From positions 192,001-256,000 of the IMG/VR virus record IMGVR_UViG_3300031555_004294: a stretch of 64,000 bases of DNA. One strand, written 5' to 3'. The notes below the pieces were generated by a model, which saw nothing but the letters and a program-made list of their open reading frames with translations, ran no database searches and had not been told where the DNA came from. The position numbers and the translations under genes were made by a program. Source of the DNA: a virus (lineage: Duplodnaviria; Caudoviricetes). Shown here in pieces: positions 49,880 through 59,390 of this stretch (within the stretch, counting starts at the first letter, position 1; the number at the start of each line of letters is the position of its first letter).

Positions 49880-50173
49880 ATGAAAGAACTAAAATTTGTT
49901 GTAAAACTTAATGATAAAACTTATAACTCTTGGGCGTTTGTAGATAAAGAAATCAAAGAAGTAACTGGTAAATATAGCTTTTTTGGTGAACAAGAATGTT
50001 TTGAAAGTATAGAAGAAGCAAGTCTTTTTATTAAAGACGTGTTATATACTCCTAGAATTAATAGATGGAGACCAGAAGTTGATGAAACTTGGTTTGAAAT
50101 TGTACCAGTTTATTTTTCAAAAGATTTTAAGAGATATGTAACAAAAGAAATATTAGAAGAGGAGAATAAATAA
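49880..50173 (+). CDS. Hypothetical protein
   Basis: ORF coupled to the gyrA start. Confidence 0.6.
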   Translation: MKELKFVVKLNDKTYNSWAFVDKEIKEVTGKYSFFGEQECFESIEEASLFIKDVLYTPRINRWRPEVDETWFEIVPVYFSKDFKRYVTKEILEEENK

Positions 50174-52677
50174 TGGCAGAAAATATAATCAAGAAAGATA
50201 TAATTGACATACAAGAAGATAATATGTTACAGTACATGTTATCACTGATGTATGACAGAGCTATTCCAGATATTAGAGATGGATTAAAACCCGTTCAAAA
50301 ATATGCCATCTGGGAATGTTATACTAGTGGATACCTTCCAAATAAACCTCATGTAAAATGTGCTAAGATTGTAGGTTCTATTATTGGTTCTTGGAGTCCT
50401 CATGGTGATACAAGTGCTTATGATGCGTTGTGTCGATTAGCTCAAGATCATTCCATGTCAATTCCACCAATTGACTTTCATGGTCAGTGTGGATCTATTG
50501 ATGGATCAGGTGCAGCAGCATATCGTTATACCGAAGCAAGACTTAGTAAATATGGTCTTGATTTAATGCAAGAAATTGATAAAGATGCAGTTGACTTTGA
50601 AAAGAACTTTGATGTGTCTAAAGATCAACCTACTGTTCTACCAGTTGTCATTCCAAATATCCTTGTCAATAGTTCAATGGGTATTGCTGGCGGATATGCT
50701 AGTAGTATTCCTCCACACAATATTAAAGATATCTGTAATGTAGTCATTGAATTAATTGACAATCCAAATATGTCAGTTAAAGAAATTGCACATAAACTAA
50801 CACCAGACTTTCCTACAGGTGGTATACTTTGTTCTAAGAAGGATATTGAGAAAGCATACATTACTGGACAAGGTTCAGTTAAACTTCGTGGTAGAGCAAA
50901 TATAGTGAGAAATAAGAATGGAACATCAGAAATTGTAATTACTGAAATTCCATATATGACTACTATTGGTCCTCGTATGTCAGGTACATCAACCAATACA
51001 GATGGTGGCTTAATCAATTCTATAGTCGCTAAGATTAAAGATGGAACTATTGAGGGTATAAAGGACATTCATGACGTTTCTGATAAGAATGGTCTTTGTA
51101 TTAAAGTTTTCATCAAAAAAGACTATGATCCTGATATTATTCTTAATCAGCTGTATAAATTCACTCAGTTAGAGTCTACCTATAAAATTATTCTTGTTTG
51201 TAAAAATGGAAATGACTTCAATGTTTACAATATTAAGAAAATTTTAACTGAATGGTTAGAATTTAGAGCAACTACAATCAGACGTATTATAGCTCATGAC
51301 ATTAAAAAGGCTAAATATAGAGAACATATCTTAGAAGGTTTATTAAAGGCTCTCAAAGATATCGATACTGTTATCAGTATTATCAGGAAAGCTAAAGGCA
51401 GAACTGAAGCTAAAGAAAAGTTAGTTGAAAAATATGGTTTTACTGATCTCCAAGTAGAAGCAATACTTGATATGAAACTGTCTCAACTTAATTCTCTTGA
51501 TGGTAAAAAACTTGAAGATGAAAGAGTAAGCAAACAGAATGAAATTATAACTCTAAAAACTAATCTGAAAGAAGAAAACATCTATAACAGAATTAAGGAA
51601 GAACAAAAAGAGTTTGCTAAGAAATATGGTAAAGATAGAAAAACTACTGTAGAAGAAATTGATACTGAAATTACAACTGAGGATATTATTGCTGATGAAG
51701 ATACACTTATTGTGGTAACTCAAGATAACTATATCAAGAGAGTTTCTAATGAGTTCAAAACTCAGAAACGTGGTACTCAAGGTATTTCTATTGGATCTAA
51801 CAGTATAACTGAAATGTTTGCAGCTTCTACTAAAGACCATTTACTTTGTTTTACTAATACTGGTCGTGTATATGATCTCAAAGCTTATGATATCAAAGAA
51901 TCTAAAGATTTGAAAGCTAAGGGATTGAGAGTTGAAAGTTACTTGAATTTGAAAGAGAATGAAACTGTAACTAATATTCTTTGCATTAGTAATACACAGA
52001 TGAATGATAATGAGTCATTTTTAGTATTTGCTACCAGAAACGGAATGATTAAGAAGACTAAACTAGAAGATTTTAACAACATTCGTTCTAATGGAATTAT
52101 TGCGTTGATGTTAAAAGCTAATGATGAGCTAGTTTGTGTTAAGTATATTGACACTAGTAAAGATATGCAAGACATCTTGATATCTACTAAAAATGCTCAA
52201 ACTGCCAGATATGATCATGAAGAAATCAAAGAGTTAGGTAGAAACACTTATGGTGTAATTGGACTTTGTTTAGAAAATGATGATAAGATTACAGACATGA
52301 CAGTCATAGAAAGTGATGATCAGCTTATCTTCTTTGCTACTAAGCAAGGTTTAGGTAAAACTATTCTAGTTACAGATAATGTTGAAAAAACAGATCCTAA
52401 TTCTAAAGAGAAAACAATCATTAATGATGGCTTTCCAAGATTAAAGCGTTCATCTAACATCAAGGGCAGATTGTGTATGAAACTTAAAAAAGATGATGAA
52501 CTTGTATCTATGGTAGCTGTCAATTCTGAAGAAGATGATTTAATGGTAGTAACAAATACTAAACTTTTAGTAGTTGAATCAGGTGAATTCAGAAAACCTC
52601 TAAAAAGACCAACTTATGGTAAGAAACTAGTAAATCTAACAAATGATGACTTTGTAAGGAAGGTTATTACAAGATAA
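50173..52677 (+). CDS. gyrA: DNA gyrase subunit A
   Basis: RAIPDIRDGLKPVQ, PHGD, AAYRYTEARL (catalytic Tyr), GyrA-box-like QKRGTQG, C-terminal pinwheel repeats. Confidence 0.93.
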   Translation: MAENIIKKDIIDIQEDNMLQYMLSLMYDRAIPDIRDGLKPVQKYAIWECYTSGYLPNKPHVKCAKIVGSIIGSWSPHGDTSAYDALCRLAQDHSMSIPPIDFHGQCGSIDGSGAAAYRYTEARLSKYGLDLMQEIDKDAVDFEKNFDVSKDQPTVLPVVIPNILVNSSMGIAGGYASSIPPHNIKDICNVVIELIDNPNMSVKEIAHKLTPDFPTGGILCSKKDIEKAYITGQGSVKLRGRANIVRNKNGTSEIVITEIPYMTTIGPRMSGTSTNTDGGLINSIVAKIKDGTIEGIKDIHDVSDKNGLCIKVFIKKDYDPDIILNQLYKFTQLESTYKIILVCKNGNDFNVYNIKKILTEWLEFRATTIRRIIAHDIKKAKYREHILEGLLKALKDIDTVISIIRKAKGRTEAKEKLVEKYGFTDLQVEAILDMKLSQLNSLDGKKLEDERVSKQNEIITLKTNLKEENIYNRIKEEQKEFAKKYGKDRKTTVEEIDTEITTEDIIADEDTLIVVTQDNYIKRVSNEFKTQKRGTQGISIGSNSITEMFAASTKDHLLCFTNTGRVYDLKAYDIKESKDLKAKGLRVESYLNLKENETVTNILCISNTQMNDNESFLVFATRNGMIKKTKLEDFNNIRSNGIIALMLKANDELVCVKYIDTSKDMQDILISTKNAQTARYDHEEIKELGRNTYGVIGLCLENDDKITDMTVIESDDQLIFFATKQGLGKTILVTDNVEKTDPNSKEKTIINDGFPRLKRSSNIKGRLCMKLKKDDELVSMVAVNSEEDDLMVVTNTKLLVVESGEFRKPLKRPTYGKKLVNLTNDDFVRKVITR

Positions 52678-52779: not shown

Positions 52780-53193
52780 ATGGAAAAGAAAGTTTTTGAT
52801 TTAAAGGTAGAAGTCAATTTAAAAGTTACAGAAGACGATATTGAAGATATCATGGTAACAGCTTTAGAAGGTGGAATTTCTTATTGGGCGTGTCTTGATA
52901 ATACAAGAGAAGAATGGAAAAATTATGAAAATGATGATGACACACCAACTAGTATTATTGCAACTAAAATACTTCTTGATGGGAAGTCACTTTATTTCAG
53001 TGATGTTGAGGATCCTGATGAAATTTGGGAATTAACGTTAGACAAATTAATGATAAGTATTGGAACAATTATTTTACATGATGAACATGAGTTGAGTTGT
53101 TCAAATAATACTTTAAATTTAGATTGTTTAGATGCATGTCTAGCAGATTCAATCATACAATACGCACTTTTCAATGAGATAATTTTTGGTTAA
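52780..53193 (+). CDS. Conserved phage hypothetical protein
   Basis: ALEGGISYWA...DAxxADxIIQYALFxEIIFG; start moved to ATG 52780. Confidence 0.7.
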   Translation: MEKKVFDLKVEVNLKVTEDDIEDIMVTALEGGISYWACLDNTREEWKNYENDDDTPTSIIATKILLDGKSLYFSDVEDPDEIWELTLDKLMISIGTIILHDEHELSCSNNTLNLDCLDACLADSIIQYALFNEIIFG

Positions 53194-53224
53194 AACTTTT
53201 ATAATTCTTCTGGAGGAATTAAAA

Positions 53225-53398
53225 ATGAGATGTCCTAAATGTAATGGTGAAGTATTACTTACTGCAACTGCAACTGATAGTACAGGTGAAGACATTATTC
53301 TTCAGTATCATTGCGATTCTTGTAAGACAGAGTTAATAGAAAAAGATATTTTAGATTTGGATGGAACAAATTATGACTTAGATGGAATTTTAAGTTGA
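53225..53398 (+). CDS. Small Zn-ribbon protein
   Basis: GGAGG RBS; MRCPKC...YHCDSC. Confidence 0.65.
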   Translation: MRCPKCNGEVLLTATATDSTGEDIILQYHCDSCKTELIEKDILDLDGTNYDLDGILS

Positions 53399-53405
53399 TG
53401 GAAAT

Positions 53406-53815
53406 AATTAATCAGAGAAGTTGATGGTATCAGAGTAAAATAATGAATCATGAAATATAAAATAGTATCAAAATTGTATAATGAATCAATAATCTAGACA
53501 GTATCAATAATAGAAATGAATCATTCGAACAAATAGTATCACGTTGGTGTAATGAATCAAATGAACTTATAGTATCAACATACAGAAATGAATCAGAACA
53601 AGAAATAGTATCAGGAATACACAATGAATCAATGATATTAATGTAGTATCAACCCATCTAAATGAATCATTGTTGTCTACAGTATCATATATAAAAAATG
53701 AATCAACATGGTCAAATGGTATCACTTTCAATTAATGAATCAAATAAAGAAATAGTATCAAATACTTATAATGAATCACGATCACCAATACAATAGTGTC
53801 AGAGCGTTTCAATGA
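53406..53815 (+). ncRNA. Dual-repeat ~36-nt array 1 (TIGR-like guide-RNA array), ~11 units
   Basis: AATGAATCA at 53442, 53480, 53515, 53551, 53587, 53623, 53661, 53697, 53734, 53770 (variant at 53406) alternates with (AY)RGTATCA cores at 53426, 53464, 53500, 53535, 53571, 53607, 53645, 53681, 53718, 53754 (variant at 53795). Intervening spacers are unique and mostly 9 nt. The repeat structure is certain; the ncRNA/TIGR call is inference. Confidence 0.75.
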
Positions 53816-53858
53816 AAAAAAAGAATATACCCACCAAAGGATATATTCTTTTTTTTTT
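53815..53858. terminator. Intrinsic (probably bidirectional) terminator closing array 1
   Basis: A run, AAGAATATA-CC / GG-TATATTCTT stem, T run. Confidence 0.75.
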
Positions 53859-53894: not shown

Positions 53895-55736
53895 CTATCG
53901 TTCATATTTGTAATCATAATTTCCACAATCCCAAATTCGACAATACTTAGTTTTGTCCATTATCTGGAACTCAGTTAAGTTATCATCGTAAATCTCTGGA
54001 AATAATTTCTTTAGTTTATGCTTCTGAAAATTAAACCTAGTTTCTCTAGTAACAAAGTCTGTATAAGAATAACCAGGTTTACTAATATCATCTAGAACAA
54101 ATCCAGTTGATTCATATAATCCACCTTTAGACCATCTTCTATCAGCATATGTTATAATACTCTTCCATTCATAATTCTCTTTAAAGTATCCAAATAACTT
54201 ATCAAATGCTCCATAGACTTGAAATTCTATATCAGTAGCAAATCTAGAAAGTTCATAGTCATACTTTCCCTTTTTTGTAAATCTAGGTTTACAAAATGTC
54301 ATAACTGCAACTAATCTATTTTCTTCATCGTTTATAGGATACCATAATCCAAGCTTTACATTAGCTTTATCTTCACCTTGAATGTGATTTTCATTTAGGA
54401 ATTGATTCTTATCTGAAGCATTAAGCTCAGCTATAAAGCATTTAGATGCTCTAATTTTAGGTAGTTCTTTAGAACAGCCTAAAATGTGTTTTAACTTAGA
54501 CTTGACTATATCTTGCTTAAAGTTCCATTCATCTTCAAAAACATGTATTAATTGTATACCTTTCTGTTTACAAGCAATGGTTTTGTTTAAGTGATAGTTT
54601 TTATCTGATAACATTTTCTCACTATGCCAATACAAACCATCAAATTCGATTGCTATATTTTTCTCTGGTAGGTAAATATCTAACTCTTTTCCATTTAAAA
54701 TTGTACGATCATTTTCTATAATCGTTCCAGTGTAAAATGATTTGATAAATTCGATGATTTCTTTTTCATCGTCACTGTAACCCTTTATCTTAGAACATTT
54801 AGGACAACGATGCATTCTTGATGTAAAATGATGAGGAAGTACTGGATAATCATGTCCACAGGTATTATGCATCATCTTAATAGAGACGCTTGCATTTACA
54901 TATTTTCCAAGAACAGTATATTCATCACCTACTAGATCATAGACTTGCTTTTCAAATTGTTCTTGGGTGAATGTTCTCTCTACTAGTCTACAATCCTTAC
55001 AACGAACTCCTTGTTTAAATGAATGGGGAGTAATGTAATCAAGATCCTTTCCACATGTATTATGTCTCATTGCTATTAGAGTGTCTGTATTAACATACTC
55101 GCCTAGCACAGTGTACTCGTCACCTACTAGAGCATAGACATCTTTCTTAAATCTTTCAGTTGTATAAGCTCCACATATCTTACATCTAACTCCACCAGTT
55201 ATAAATGCATGAGGAGTTGTAGGAAAAGTTTCTCCACAAACAGAATGTAACATTTCAACTGGTTCGTTATATTTAGTAAACGGAGTTACTGGTAGGTACT
55301 CTCCACCAACCAAGTCATACACTTTTTGCTTAAACTTTTCATCCTTCTCCTTTGCTAAACATGTCTTACAACGTTGCTGTCCTTTTTTAAATCTAGCTGG
55401 TATGATTGGATAAATTTCTCCGCACTTATGTTTTATATCGAGTTCTGTATTGTTATTTACATAGGTTCCTAAAACTGTATAGTCAGTTCCAACTAATTTG
55501 TACACTTCTTTCTTAAATGTTTCTGTAGTTCCTTTAAGGTTACCAAAACATACTGGACATCTTGTATTATCTTTAAAATGTGCTGGTGTAATATACCACT
55601 CATCATAACCACAAACGTTATGTTTCATTCGTATCTTTGTCTTATCATTTGCATATTCACCTAGAACAGTATATTCATCACCAACTAAACTTTCTACTAA
55701 AGCCTTGTACTCTTCAGTATTAGATCTTGGCCACAT
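53895..55736 (-). CDS. Hef-like/DUF559-type homing endonuclease with about five N-terminal Zn-ribbon repeats
   Basis: Repeated F..xVYxLVGDEYTVLGxYVN...H..CG...P..F..G.RCxxC; ELDIYLPEKNIAIEFDGLYWH nuclease motif; C-terminal YELSRFA/ITYADRRW/IWDCG domain. Confidence 0.8.
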   Translation of the reverse strand: MWPRSNTEEYKALVESLVGDEYTVLGEYANDKTKIRMKHNVCGYDEWYITPAHFKDNTRCPVCFGNLKGTTETFKKEVYKLVGTDYTVLGTYVNNNTELDIKHKCGEIYPIIPARFKKGQQRCKTCLAKEKDEKFKQKVYDLVGGEYLPVTPFTKYNEPVEMLHSVCGETFPTTPHAFITGGVRCKICGAYTTERFKKDVYALVGDEYTVLGEYVNTDTLIAMRHNTCGKDLDYITPHSFKQGVRCKDCRLVERTFTQEQFEKQVYDLVGDEYTVLGKYVNASVSIKMMHNTCGHDYPVLPHHFTSRMHRCPKCSKIKGYSDDEKEIIEFIKSFYTGTIIENDRTILNGKELDIYLPEKNIAIEFDGLYWHSEKMLSDKNYHLNKTIACKQKGIQLIHVFEDEWNFKQDIVKSKLKHILGCSKELPKIRASKCFIAELNASDKNQFLNENHIQGEDKANVKLGLWYPINDEENRLVAVMTFCKPRFTKKGKYDYELSRFATDIEFQVYGAFDKLFGYFKENYEWKSIITYADRRWSKGGLYESTGFVLDDISKPGYSYTDFVTRETRFNFQKHKLKKLFPEIYDDNLTEFQIMDKTKYCRIWDCGNYDYKYER

Positions 55737-56489: not shown

Positions 56490-57959
56490 ATGTATAATTT
56501 ATTACAAGCTTATTCAGATGAAAACCCAGAGAAATTTAACGAAGAACTGATCTATCTAAAGGAACATGATGAAGTATTAACACACATCAACTCTATCTTT
56601 AAGGCTCTTGAAGTTATTAATGGAGTTGAATTTTTAGGAAGTACTATTAATAAAGATGAATCTAGTTTTCCAGATTATATTAAGAACGAGAAGCACCAAG
56701 TCAATATTGAAGAGTCTAGACATATGTTAATTACATTTAAGTTTAGGATTTTTGATAACAAAACAGGTGAAGAGGAAATTATTGAAAAGAGCTTGTTCTT
56801 TCCTAAATTGATAGACAAGACTTATTTTATTTTGAATGGAAATAAGTTTTTCCCAATTTACCAAATTATCGATAGCGCAACATACAATAACAATAGTAGT
56901 TTAACTTTAAAGACACTATTGATGGGTGTTACAATTCGTACTAAAGATATCGAATTTTATGATATGGACGACAATAAATATGAAGGAGTCATTAAAGTAA
57001 TCGATCTGTTTAAAAATAAACTCAATTACTTGATGTATTTCTTTGTAGATAGAGGTTATAACGATACTTTAGAATATTTCCTAGGTAGCGAAAATGTAAA
57101 GAAAATCCATTTAGTATTAGAAAACAGTAAAGAACATAAAAAGATTAACAATAACAACTACGTACAGTTTAAGTTAAAGGAAGAAACCATACTAGCTGTT
57201 GAAAAAGAATTATTTGATAGGTACTTTAAGTTCTTTACAAATGTAATTGATATTCTTAGTGATACTGAAATGTTTCAAATTCTTGATAAAAACTATTGGA
57301 AGTTAGAAATGGGTAAGCTATTCAGTAGAAATAAGAATAATTACGAAAGCAAAGCAGATGATATTTTAATTTCATTTAAGAGAATTCTAGATAATTCTAC
57401 ACAAAGTACTTTAAGATTAAAGGAAGAAAATAAGAGTGATATTTTTGCCATCATTAGATGGATGGTAAGAAATTATGACACTCTAATCTATCAGGATAAT
57501 ATGTCATTGGATTATAAGAGAATTCGTATTAATGAGTATCTTTGCTATGACTTGCTTATTAAGATGAGTAATTCAACATATAGATTGCTTAATAAGTCTG
57601 AAATTACTTTAAAGGATAGACAGACTTTATTTAGTACTTTAACTCCTATGTATATTTTAAAGAAGATTGGTAGTAACGAACTGTTAAGATATTTTGGTGG
57701 CGTAAATGCGATTGAACTATTTAATCCTAGTCTTAAGTTCTCACAACGTGGATTCCAAGGTCTAGGTGAAGGTAGTCGTGATGTTAATAAGTCTTACAGA
57801 GGACTGCACTATTCATATCCTGGAAGGATAGGTCTGACTAGTAGTTCAGCTGGTGACCCAGGTATGTCAGGAACGTTCACTCCTTTCTCAAAAATTTATG
57901 TTGATAATGGTTTTTATTTCTCTGACACGATGTTAGACGAAAACGAACAAGACTTCTGA
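56490..57959 (+). CDS. Split multisubunit RNA polymerase, beta subunit N-terminal part
   Basis: FPKL...YFILNG (cf. beta 'G.FIING'), LDYKRIR (cf. LGNRRIR), RGLHYSYPGRI...SAGDPGMSG (cf. RDVHxSHYGRxCPxxTPEGxNxGL); ends before the catalytic double-psi barrel. Confidence 0.8.
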   Translation: MYNLLQAYSDENPEKFNEELIYLKEHDEVLTHINSIFKALEVINGVEFLGSTINKDESSFPDYIKNEKHQVNIEESRHMLITFKFRIFDNKTGEEEIIEKSLFFPKLIDKTYFILNGNKFFPIYQIIDSATYNNNSSLTLKTLLMGVTIRTKDIEFYDMDDNKYEGVIKVIDLFKNKLNYLMYFFVDRGYNDTLEYFLGSENVKKIHLVLENSKEHKKINNNNYVQFKLKEETILAVEKELFDRYFKFFTNVIDILSDTEMFQILDKNYWKLEMGKLFSRNKNNYESKADDILISFKRILDNSTQSTLRLKEENKSDIFAIIRWMVRNYDTLIYQDNMSLDYKRIRINEYLCYDLLIKMSNSTYRLLNKSEITLKDRQTLFSTLTPMYILKKIGSNELLRYFGGVNAIELFNPSLKFSQRGFQGLGEGSRDVNKSYRGLHYSYPGRIGLTSSSAGDPGMSGTFTPFSKIYVDNGFYFSDTMLDENEQDF

Positions 57960-58070: not shown

Positions 58071-58781
58071 ATGAGTAACCTAATGAACAAAATTAGAACA
58101 TCAAAAATAATTTTCAACATTCTTTTTATTTTATCTGAAGCGTATGCTGTTGTTACAAATTTACTTCCTTCAAAAGAAGAAAGAATTAAAAAGAACTATG
58201 AAGCTGTAAAGAAATTCACTAAAGAAGATGGTAAGGAATACATCAATGGACAAGGTTTAGGAGAAGTAGCAACTTTACCATTTGGAAAGAAAACATTTAG
58301 TTATTGCGGATGTGGTGCAATTGCAACTTACAATTCCTTAGTAACTTTAGGCTGTAAAGATTGTTTGGCTGATACTGCTAAATATTATGAGACCAGTGGA
58401 CTTATTTTAGACGGTGCCTTTGGTATCCATCCAAATGCTGTTAGAAATTATTTTGAAGATGTTCAATGTGATGTAAACGTACATATACTCTACAATTCTG
58501 ATGTAGATAACAATTATGAAAAGTTTGATGAAATTTTTAAAGATGCAAAATCTGCAATCCTTTTATCTTGGAATTCTGTAAATCTAAAGCATGATAATGG
58601 TAATTTTGCAGGAATGCATTATGTATCTATATCACATTCATTAGACAAAGATGGTAATCCAAGAATTGATGTTTATAATGCATACAGTAAAGTAAACCAT
58701 CTTGTACATTACAACTCAATCGAATCGTACATTAAAACACAGAAAATACTCCCAGTAGTTTTATTTACACTCAACAAGTAA
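58071..58781 (+). CDS. C39-like cysteine peptidase-family protein with a hydrophobic N-terminus
   Basis: GQG...GCGAIATYN (Cys), MHYV (His), VYN. Confidence 0.55.
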   Translation: MSNLMNKIRTSKIIFNILFILSEAYAVVTNLLPSKEERIKKNYEAVKKFTKEDGKEYINGQGLGEVATLPFGKKTFSYCGCGAIATYNSLVTLGCKDCLADTAKYYETSGLILDGAFGIHPNAVRNYFEDVQCDVNVHILYNSDVDNNYEKFDEIFKDAKSAILLSWNSVNLKHDNGNFAGMHYVSISHSLDKDGNPRIDVYNAYSKVNHLVHYNSIESYIKTQKILPVVLFTLNK

Positions 58782-58868
58782 TAATATTTAATCCGTACTA
58801 TATCTATATATTTTAGATATAGTACGGATTAAATTTATGCTTAAAAATGAAAGGAAATAATACAAGAT

Positions 58869-59390
58869 ATGTATGAACGAGAGAATTATATATCATGGGA
58901 TGAATATTTTATGGGAGTAGCTTTATTAGCTGCTAAGAGAAGTAAAGATCCTAGAAGACAAGTTGGAGCTTGTATTGTAAAAGACAATAAAATTTTAGCA
59001 ACTGGATACAATGGTTTTCCTAGAGGATGCTCTGATGATGCTTATTGTTGGGCTAAAGATGTTGACAAAGAAGTAAATGAAAGAGAAAAAAGATTTAATA
59101 ATAGACTCTCACGTAATAAGTTCTGGTATGTTATTCATGCAGAACTAAATGCAATTCTTAATTGTAATAGAACTGACTTAGATAATAGCATCATTTATGT
59201 TGATCTATTTCCTTGTAATGAATGTGCAAAAACAATCATTCAAGCTGGAATAAAAGAAGTTGTTTATATGAGTGATGAGGATATACACAAAGAGTCATAT
59301 AAAGTGTCTAAACTAATGTTAGATGATGCAAATGTCAAAATAAGAAAGATTGAAAGAACTGAATTTTTGATAAAACTAATGGAGGTTTAA
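58869..59390 (+). CDS. dCMP deaminase
   Basis: WDEYFM, RSKDP, VGACIV, GYNGFPRG, HAELNAI, FPCNEC. Confidence 0.92.
   Translation: MYERENYISWDEYFMGVALLAAKRSKDPRRQVGACIVKDNKILATGYNGFPRGCSDDAYCWAKDVDKEVNEREKRFNNRLSRNKFWYVIHAELNAILNCNRTDLDNSIIYVDLFPCNECAKTIIQAGIKEVVYMSDEDIHKESYKVSKLMLDDANVKIRKIERTEFLIKLMEV

Follow-up and report, generated by a model that had tools for sequence, protein, structure and literature searches.

The presence of short, alternating repeats at 53406..53816 (+ strand) of the 64,000-nt window analyzed here raised the question of whether this locus encodes guide RNAs, and, if so, which protein would use them and why the locus stands where it does. The window belongs to a complete 299,070-bp IMG/VR virus record with 31% G+C, from a phage that occurs in animal faeces metagenomes. 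An earlier note on this DNA had proposed, from the geometry of the repeats, that the locus is a TIGR-like guide array, and this proposal gained support from the anatomy of the array, from the single Tas protein found in the genome, and from the combination of conserved repeats with different spacers. The explanation that we favor, and that we consider quite probable as a whole, is that this locus (array 1) is a TIGR array used in trans by TasA and stranded by a rearrangement.

Array 1 comprises 11 units, each consisting of an edge repeat (AATGAATCA), spacer A, a loop repeat (AYAGTATCA) and spacer B. The edge repeats start at positions 53406, 53442, 53480, 53515, 53551, 53587, 53623, 53661, 53697, 53734, and 53770, with edge-to-edge periods of 36, 38, 35, 36, 36, 36, 38, 36, 37, and 36 nt; we reproduced all of the periods listed in the earlier note, and every spacer quoted there was found in the 11 units that we parsed. 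The first of the 11 edge repeats is degenerate (AATTAATCA) and the other ten are exact; a final edge repeat, AATGAA, is truncated at its 3′ end and is followed by an A-run and then by a hairpin with a T-run. The loop repeat reads A[T/C/G][A/G]GTATCA and lies 18–23 nt past each edge copy. The description of array 1 as 36-nt units with 9-nt spacers held for part of the array: a 36-nt period, the unit length said to be needed by dual-repeat systems, was found in only 6 of the 11 units. Spacer A is 9 nt long in 7 units but measures 10, 11, 11, and 14 nt in the other four, and spacer B is 9 nt long in 10 units and 8 nt in one.

We observed that 31 of the 37 exact copies of AATGAATCA in the 299-kb genome fall inside three arrays, which make up ~0.5% of the genome, and that a motif-agnostic chain scan (ATCA every 16–21 nt) returned these three arrays alone, while none was returned from 20 shuffled genomes. 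The repeat pattern of array 1 is far beyond chance. No Rfam family was detected within the window.

The three arrays hold 39 units (11 + 14 + 14) spread over 17.6 kb on both strands. Array 2 (60186..60696, + strand) begins 24 nt past the stop codon of a 134-aa ORF, and its 14 units carry the repeats of array 1 in a more degenerate form, along with different spacers. Array 3 (genome 262490-262997, − strand; about 6490-7000 of L001) lies outside the window and consists of 14 units with the same repeats and a degenerate start. Over the three arrays, 26 of 39 units are exactly 36 nt long, and 76 of 78 spacers are at least 9 nt long, mostly exactly 9. Exactly one unit is duplicated in the genome: unit 9 of array 1 (window 53697-53742) corresponds to unit 7 of array 3 (genome 262740-262786, − strand) in both spacers, with neighboring units that are unrelated. 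The two copies differ by one extra A in spacer A and by two bases of the loop repeat. Because arrays 1 and 3 are oppositely oriented, the 17 kb between them could be inverted by way of this shared stretch of ~56 nt. Among the DNA contigs of four faeces metagenomes, one contig (run X1) was identical to the window over array 1, and no resolved spacer variation was found in this array; an apparent 1-nt insertion at 53713 in metagenome contigs probably comes from the array 3 copy of the shared unit.

The only tas gene in the whole genome (NF052498 search) sits 7 kb past the end of the window (genome 263064-264113, − strand; L001:7064-8113), directly upstream of array 3 and on the same strand; array 1 lies 17 kb and array 2 lies 10 kb away from it. 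The tas product, which is 349 aa long from its second Met (P0002), scored 151.7 bits against the NCBIfam model NF052498, “TIGR-Tas system RNA-guided endonuclease” (cut-off 100), matched phrog_4285 at 1e-36, and matched the solved structures of TasR (9mty) and TasH by sequence at 3.8e-12 and 3.6e-7, respectively. The Pfam Nop family (PF01798) gave no match over the whole genome, P0002 included, because Tas proteins lie too far from what that model describes; the protein was picked up by NCBIfam and PHROG. Three ORFs within the window were considered as effectors and rejected: a 236-aa ORF that belongs to no family, a 489-aa ORF that is a phiKZ-type non-virion RNA polymerase (RNAP) beta subunit, and a 613-aa ORF that is an HNH/homing-type endonuclease. 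Among GenBank phages, we found no DNA match and only one weak Tas-like protein match, in a Microcystis phage.

The AlphaFold2 model of P0002, built with 39 homologues (pLDDT 84.8), was all-helical, with disorder at residues 1–33, two long coiled-coil helices that start near residue 56, and a helical Nop domain. Foldseek placed TasH and TasR chains first among the matches to this model (E = 4e-8 to 1e-4), followed by the IS621/ISCro4 recombinases. We detected no HNH or RuvC domain in the model, and no nuclease family in Pfam or NCBIfam. Since P0002 matches Tas proteins and lacks a nuclease domain, it is a TasA, the nuclease-free form of Tas. A homodimer of P0002 was predicted to form via the coiled coil (residues 47–125), with an ipSAE of 0.48 compared with 0.01 for the best control, contact agreement of at least 45% and a partner pLDDT of at least 74; of proteins with solved structures, 20 of 30 known as pairs and 1 of 23 known as single chains attain the ipSAE mark applied. 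This result may reflect memory of, or likeness to, the solved Tas dimers.

Dual-repeat Tas proteins have been reported to cut the precursor RNA with a Y/H dyad, which in SpTasH corresponds to Y289 and H296. The equivalent of H296 is kept in P0002, where two further His flank it (HLGHVH), and is conserved in 36 of the 39 homologues. The equivalent of Y289 is a Phe in P0002 (residue 321, genome about 263150, − strand), and the 39 homologues divide into 19 with F and 20 with Y at this position, all of those with F falling in the nearer clade. Because the Tyr of the dyad is Phe here, self-processing of guides is not assured for P0002.

When IMG/VR was scanned for the repeat pattern, 13 other contigs proved to carry the same repeats; most are phage genomes of 100–320 kb, and several have arrays at two or three separate loci. 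The earlier note had proposed looking for spacer turnover against conserved repeats in related phages, and this is what we observed: from the 13 contigs we parsed 176 units, which hold 143 distinct spacer pairs. Not one of these pairs (0/143) occurs in this phage, and even the nearest shows 6 differences over 18 positions, which is what chance would give. Arrays beside Tas proteins 72–76% identical to P0002 have no spacers in common with this phage. In four other samples with an identical Tas, the region from tas through array 3 to the ATPase gene is identical over 631 nt, an identity by which these samples are taken to carry the same strain. Across 215 units, G at position 4 and (T)CA at positions 7–9 are near-invariant in both repeats, at frequencies inflated by the picking of related units for their likeness to the consensus. 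The combination of kept repeats and complete spacer turnover would fit guide arrays, and not coding sequence or protein-binding iterons.

The latter comparison bears on an alternative that the earlier note had itself raised, namely that the repeats are bound as double-stranded DNA by a replication or segregation protein, in the manner of iterons or a partition centromere, and do not belong to RNA guides. Regularly spaced short repeats do resemble iteron or parS clusters, and ParB-like genes are linked to some TasA loci. Nothing in our analysis pointed to such a role, however, and we give it next to no credence: a bona fide Tas is encoded beside an identical array, no ParB or Rep gene was found among the neighbors, and the arrays are strand-specific, with array 3 and the tas-adjacent arrays of related phages lying on the tas strand. 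The truncated end repeats are polar, and arrays 1 and 2 end in terminators. Judged by its sequence, array 1 is a genuine dual-repeat TIGR array of a TIGR-TasA system.

We then considered how array 1 could be expressed. A 70-aa ORF with weak zinc-ribbon matches in Pfam and NCBIfam (53186..53398, + strand), which is not a TIGR component, ends just upstream of the array. The earlier statement that array 1 follows a stop codon and ends at a terminator was borne out on both counts. No hairpin was found between this stop codon and the array, and because array 1 starts only 7 nt past it, the array is probably co-transcribed with the zinc-ribbon ORF. The intrinsic terminator of array 1 (53819..53858, + strand) consists of an 11–13-bp hairpin and a T-run, with a predicted fold of −10.9 kcal/mol (z = −4.46) that was equaled in stability by 0 of 200 shuffles; since an A-run precedes the hairpin, it can also serve the convergent HNH gene. 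The terminator of array 2 (60703..60752, + strand) is a 19-bp stem with a T-run and folds at −22.3 kcal/mol (z = −8.9). For array 3, which abuts the AAA-ATPase gene directly, no terminator was found. The tas stop codon is separated from the first repeat of array 3 by a hairpin with a 14-bp stem and a U-run (region fold −26.4 kcal/mol, z = −4.9), and this strong hairpin and U-run mean that the tas-adjacent array may not be co-transcribed with tas. Our sigma-70 promoter scan stayed at or below the shuffle level, with no promoter that could be named for array 1, in a phage that encodes its own phiKZ-type RNAP.

This polymerase is represented in the window by a 489-aa protein (56490-57959, + strand) that matches the phiKZ non-virion RNAP beta subunit (PDB 7s00_c, 7e-99), and the phage is one of the jumbo phages with their own multisubunit RNA polymerase. 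The 236-aa ORF (58071-58833) has no family in Pfam, PHROGs, NCBIfam, or the PDB and no match in the compared parts of the closest relative, and is possibly an inserted cassette; a perfect palindrome with a 20-bp stem (58787-58833) stands just after it. The dCMP deaminase gene (58794-59347) displayed a ~15-fold higher summed contig depth in the four faecal metagenomes, with many chimeric joints. This excess is due to reads from the conserved deaminase genes of other organisms and is not a property of the phage.

To account for the distance between array 1 and tas, we compared the gene order with that of four relatives: the closest one, G001 (IMGVR_UViG_3300029305_004950, 320 kb, Tas 63% identical), L043, L044, and L045 (Tas 53% identical). 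Their order is DUF4314, tas, array, HNH (in some), HU, and non-virion RNAP-beta. For L044, this was checked up to the gene that follows the array and is cut by the contig end, and in L045 tas and HU have no array between them. In G001 and L045, which are long enough, the order goes on with dCMP deaminase, small genes, and a second array, at the syntenic position of array 2. In the phage studied here, the zinc-ribbon gene leads into array 1, HNH, HU, and RNAP-beta, and the ATPase gene borders a block of array 3, tas, and DUF4314 that runs in the opposite orientation; in G001, the zinc-ribbon homologue is directly followed by the AAA-ATPase gene, with no array in between. We also found that the last units of array 1, the AATGAA with its A-run, the terminator, and the HNH 3′ flank can be aligned to the place where the tas-proximal array of G001 ends. 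The HNH gene itself (613 aa, 53895..55736, − strand; phrog_559, E = 9e-187) is convergent on array 1 and 73% identical to the gene beside the tas-proximal array of G001, and it is a flank marker of the old tas-array junction rather than a TIGR component. G001 has the gene, as L044 probably does (its 551-aa gene at this place runs into the contig end); in L043 and L045 the gene is missing and HU comes directly next. The HNH gene looks like a mobile insertion.

On the simplest reading, the gene order of the relatives would be ancestral, and it is from this comparison that we infer the order of events. Given this order, the kept 3′ end and flank of array 1, and the location of tas next to array 3 instead, a rearrangement probably split array 1 off as the distal portion of an array that formerly adjoined tas. 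Overall, at least two events separate this genome from that of G001.

Some further features of G001 differ from this phage in their layout. Its tas-proximal array (L014 8840-8905; G001 about 198000-198070) is split in two by ~70 nt of non-array sequence, which contains a Shine-Dalgarno-like AAAGGAGG. The gene for a GyrA-like topoisomerase, which is continuous here (window 50173-52677), is matched in G001 (L025/L026, 146310-150119) by two pieces 1.3 kb apart within one 1279-aa frame; these correspond to residues 1–120 and 118–833, a layout suggestive of an intein. In the AAA-ATPase gene of G001, too, there is an interruption of about 1.2 kb.

An array that was cut off from its tas gene could also be a non-functional relic of the old tas-adjacent array, unexpressed or unloaded, that simply has not decayed. 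Such an origin would agree with the loss from array 1 of its tas neighbor and of any earlier upstream context, with the 5 of 11 units that are off the 36-nt length, and with the lack of an array 1 promoter in the sigma-70 scan. We nevertheless regard a relic as unlikely, since the edge repeats of array 1 are the best kept of the three arrays (10/11 exact, compared with 8/14 in array 2), the array still has its terminator, and it lies directly 3′ of a same-strand ORF with no terminator between them. Moreover, relatives have arrays far from tas as well: in a 247-kb contig, arrays are located at ~58, 86, and 208 kb, and only the last of these adjoins tas, the others being ~120–150 kb away. Published TIGR arrays sit beside tas, and we infer that array 1 is used from 17 kb away, in trans.

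We searched for DNA that the guides could recognize, using as the target model spacer A joined to the reverse complement of spacer B; this model is derived from reported 3′ overhangs and is not stated outright in the papers, and our tests also took in the reverse order, gaps of 0–2, and control geometries. The 39 spacer pairs gave no perfect site in the phage's own 299-kb genome, in both orders and with gaps of 0–2. Sites with one mismatch came only from one low-complexity, AT-rich unit, and sites with two mismatches numbered 13 and 8 compared with 7, 7, and 7 for the controls. Single spacer 9-mers were neither enriched nor depleted in the same genome (496 vs. 489 ± 50 in shuffles), and the G+C content of the spacers (32%) is close to that of the phage (31%). 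The guides of this phage found nothing above controls in the whole 320-kb genome of G001 or in all loci fetched, and neither did the guides of the related phages in this genome. Exact 18-mers from three guides gave 3, 6, and 2 matches in IMG/VR, several of them redundant and several in GC-rich contexts, and the exact 18-mer of one guide gave 57 matches over unrelated phyla in 185,579 species genomes; both results are at chance level, and the literature warns of such chance-level matches for guides this short. The 18-mer check suggested in the earlier note thus returned nothing better than chance from the phage's own genome, its closest relative, or, for the four 18-mers scanned, the databases.

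These searches bear on the idea that the guides regulate the phage's own genome, programming TasA to repress phage genes in the course of infection. TasA and nuclease-dead TasR do repress transcription when aimed at a gene (bioRxiv 10.64898/2026.09.09.750476), and control of the viral lifecycle is among the possible roles that authors have named in the literature. The lack of a perfect site for any spacer pair, two-mismatch counts near those of the controls, and single 9-mers at shuffle level all argue against this idea, to which we assign only a very small chance. Because no targets were found in the phage itself, they are presumably host or rival-element DNA, and the absence of self-targets, together with that of targets in the closest relative, narrows the likely targets to the host or to unrelated mobile DNA.

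Taken together, we propose that array 1, used in trans by TasA, would work as follows. The array would be transcribed on the + strand, probably by read-through from the zinc-ribbon gene, with transcription stopping at the array's own terminator, and its precursor would be bound by dimers of the single TasA encoded 17 kb away. Each RNA would steer a TasA dimer to an 18-bp DNA site, where the two spacers would pair with opposite strands, spacer B with the 9 nt that adjoin the part bound by spacer A. The nuclease-free complex would then bind and block, e.g., repress transcription, as has been shown for another TasA. As for its origin, a breakpoint inside a formerly tas-adjacent array would have left the distal part, with the terminator and flank, as array 1. 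A broader version of this proposal, which we put forward tentatively and with more doubt than belief, is that arrays act in trans at 10 to >100 kb from tasA and are sites of breakage and exchange, such that the breakpoint split one guide set into two expressed arrays that share one unit. If this is true, guides would be multiplied, dispersed, and reshuffled by recombination inside an array or from one array to another, with no need for a dedicated adaptation machinery.

TIGR-Tas systems were first described in 2025 (Faure et al., 2025, PMC12045711), and the type of system found here is already published (2025–2026). Dual-repeat arrays have been described as two alternating repeats of 8–12 nt with spacers of ~9 nt, a degenerate first edge repeat, and a last one that is truncated at its 3′ end and followed by a terminator; they are processed to 36-nt tigRNAs, from mid-edge to mid-edge, and targeting is by tandem spacers, spacer A on one DNA strand and spacer B on the other (PMC12045711). 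All sequence-level features of the published dual-repeat definition were found in these arrays. Neither the repeat nor the IMG sample numbers of the related contigs appear in the supplementary files of the Science paper. Each of the two repeats of a TasR array starts with UG (box D) and ends with CCA (box C) (PMC12045711). In dual-repeat systems, box D-like motifs at the 5′ end and box C-like motifs at the 3′ end are common to edge and loop repeats and covary between them. The comparison of repeats with the published consensus that the earlier note had suggested revealed the same box D/box C plan but with UG/AG...UCA in place of UG...CCA.

FpTIGR of Flavonifractor plautii, a TIGR-TasA system (PMC12045711), resembles the arrays described here in its alternating repeats, ~9-nt spacers, and 36-nt unit, and systems of this type also share the truncated last edge repeat with a terminator, the carriage by phages, and a nuclease-free Nop-domain Tas with a coiled-coil dimerization region. 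TasA is an RNA-guided repressor (bioRxiv 10.64898/2026.09.09.750476). Unlike in FpTIGR-type systems, the repeats here end in UCA instead of CCA, the loop box D starts with AG instead of UG, and the carrier is a jumbo phage (299 kb) whose non-virion RNA polymerase is phiKZ-like. The three arrays are also dispersed over both strands, with arrays 1 and 2 outside the 10-kb flanks of tas that were examined for the published array catalogue, and because two arrays here lie beyond such flanks, tas-centered catalogues probably undercount guides.

Among solved structures, the best structural match was SpTIGR-TasH of Salicola phage CGphi29 (Foldseek E = 4e-8; PDB 9w03, 9w04, 21kl; PMC13421893), which likewise has a dual-repeat array, is phage-borne, and has the C-terminal loop His (H296) that is kept in P0002; in contrast to SpTasH, P0002 has no HNH domain, has Phe at the Y289 equivalent, and is only ~16% identical in sequence. 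By sequence, the solved structure that matched best was TaTasR, from a Thermoproteota archaeon (PDB 9mty); P0002 has the same Nop fold and GIGP helix-hairpin region but lacks the RuvC domain of TaTasR and would not be expected to cleave DNA.

The IS110 bridge-RNA recombinases (IS621, ISCro4), which formed the second tier of Foldseek matches, have an RNA-binding Nop-like domain as P0002 does, whereas P0002 has no DEDD or serine recombinase domain and its guides come in arrays and not as a single bridge RNA. We rejected an IS110 bridge-RNA transposon as the identity of this locus, with P0002 scoring 17.4 bits against the IS110 model NF033542 (cut-off 140) and giving only a weak match to PF02371 (15 bits, under its cut-off). 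CRISPR arrays are similar in being repeat-spacer guide arrays in which spacers turn over while repeats stay, but the arrays here have 9-nt repeats of two kinds and two spacers per guide, with no cas or adaptation genes. CRISPR-Cas, which combines a single repeat of 25–36 nt with similarly sized spacers and cas genes, was likewise rejected, given the two kinds of 9-nt repeat and the lack of any cas family among the neighbors.

Set against these known systems, the present case contributes 39 guides and one TasA from a complete phage genome of 299 kb. Its points of interest are the three dispersed arrays of a jumbo phage, the rearrangement through an array, the Tyr-to-Phe change in the processing dyad, and the lack of self-targets, and an array that was cut by a rearrangement and has intact repeats in both halves offers a small but concrete clue to how arrays spread.
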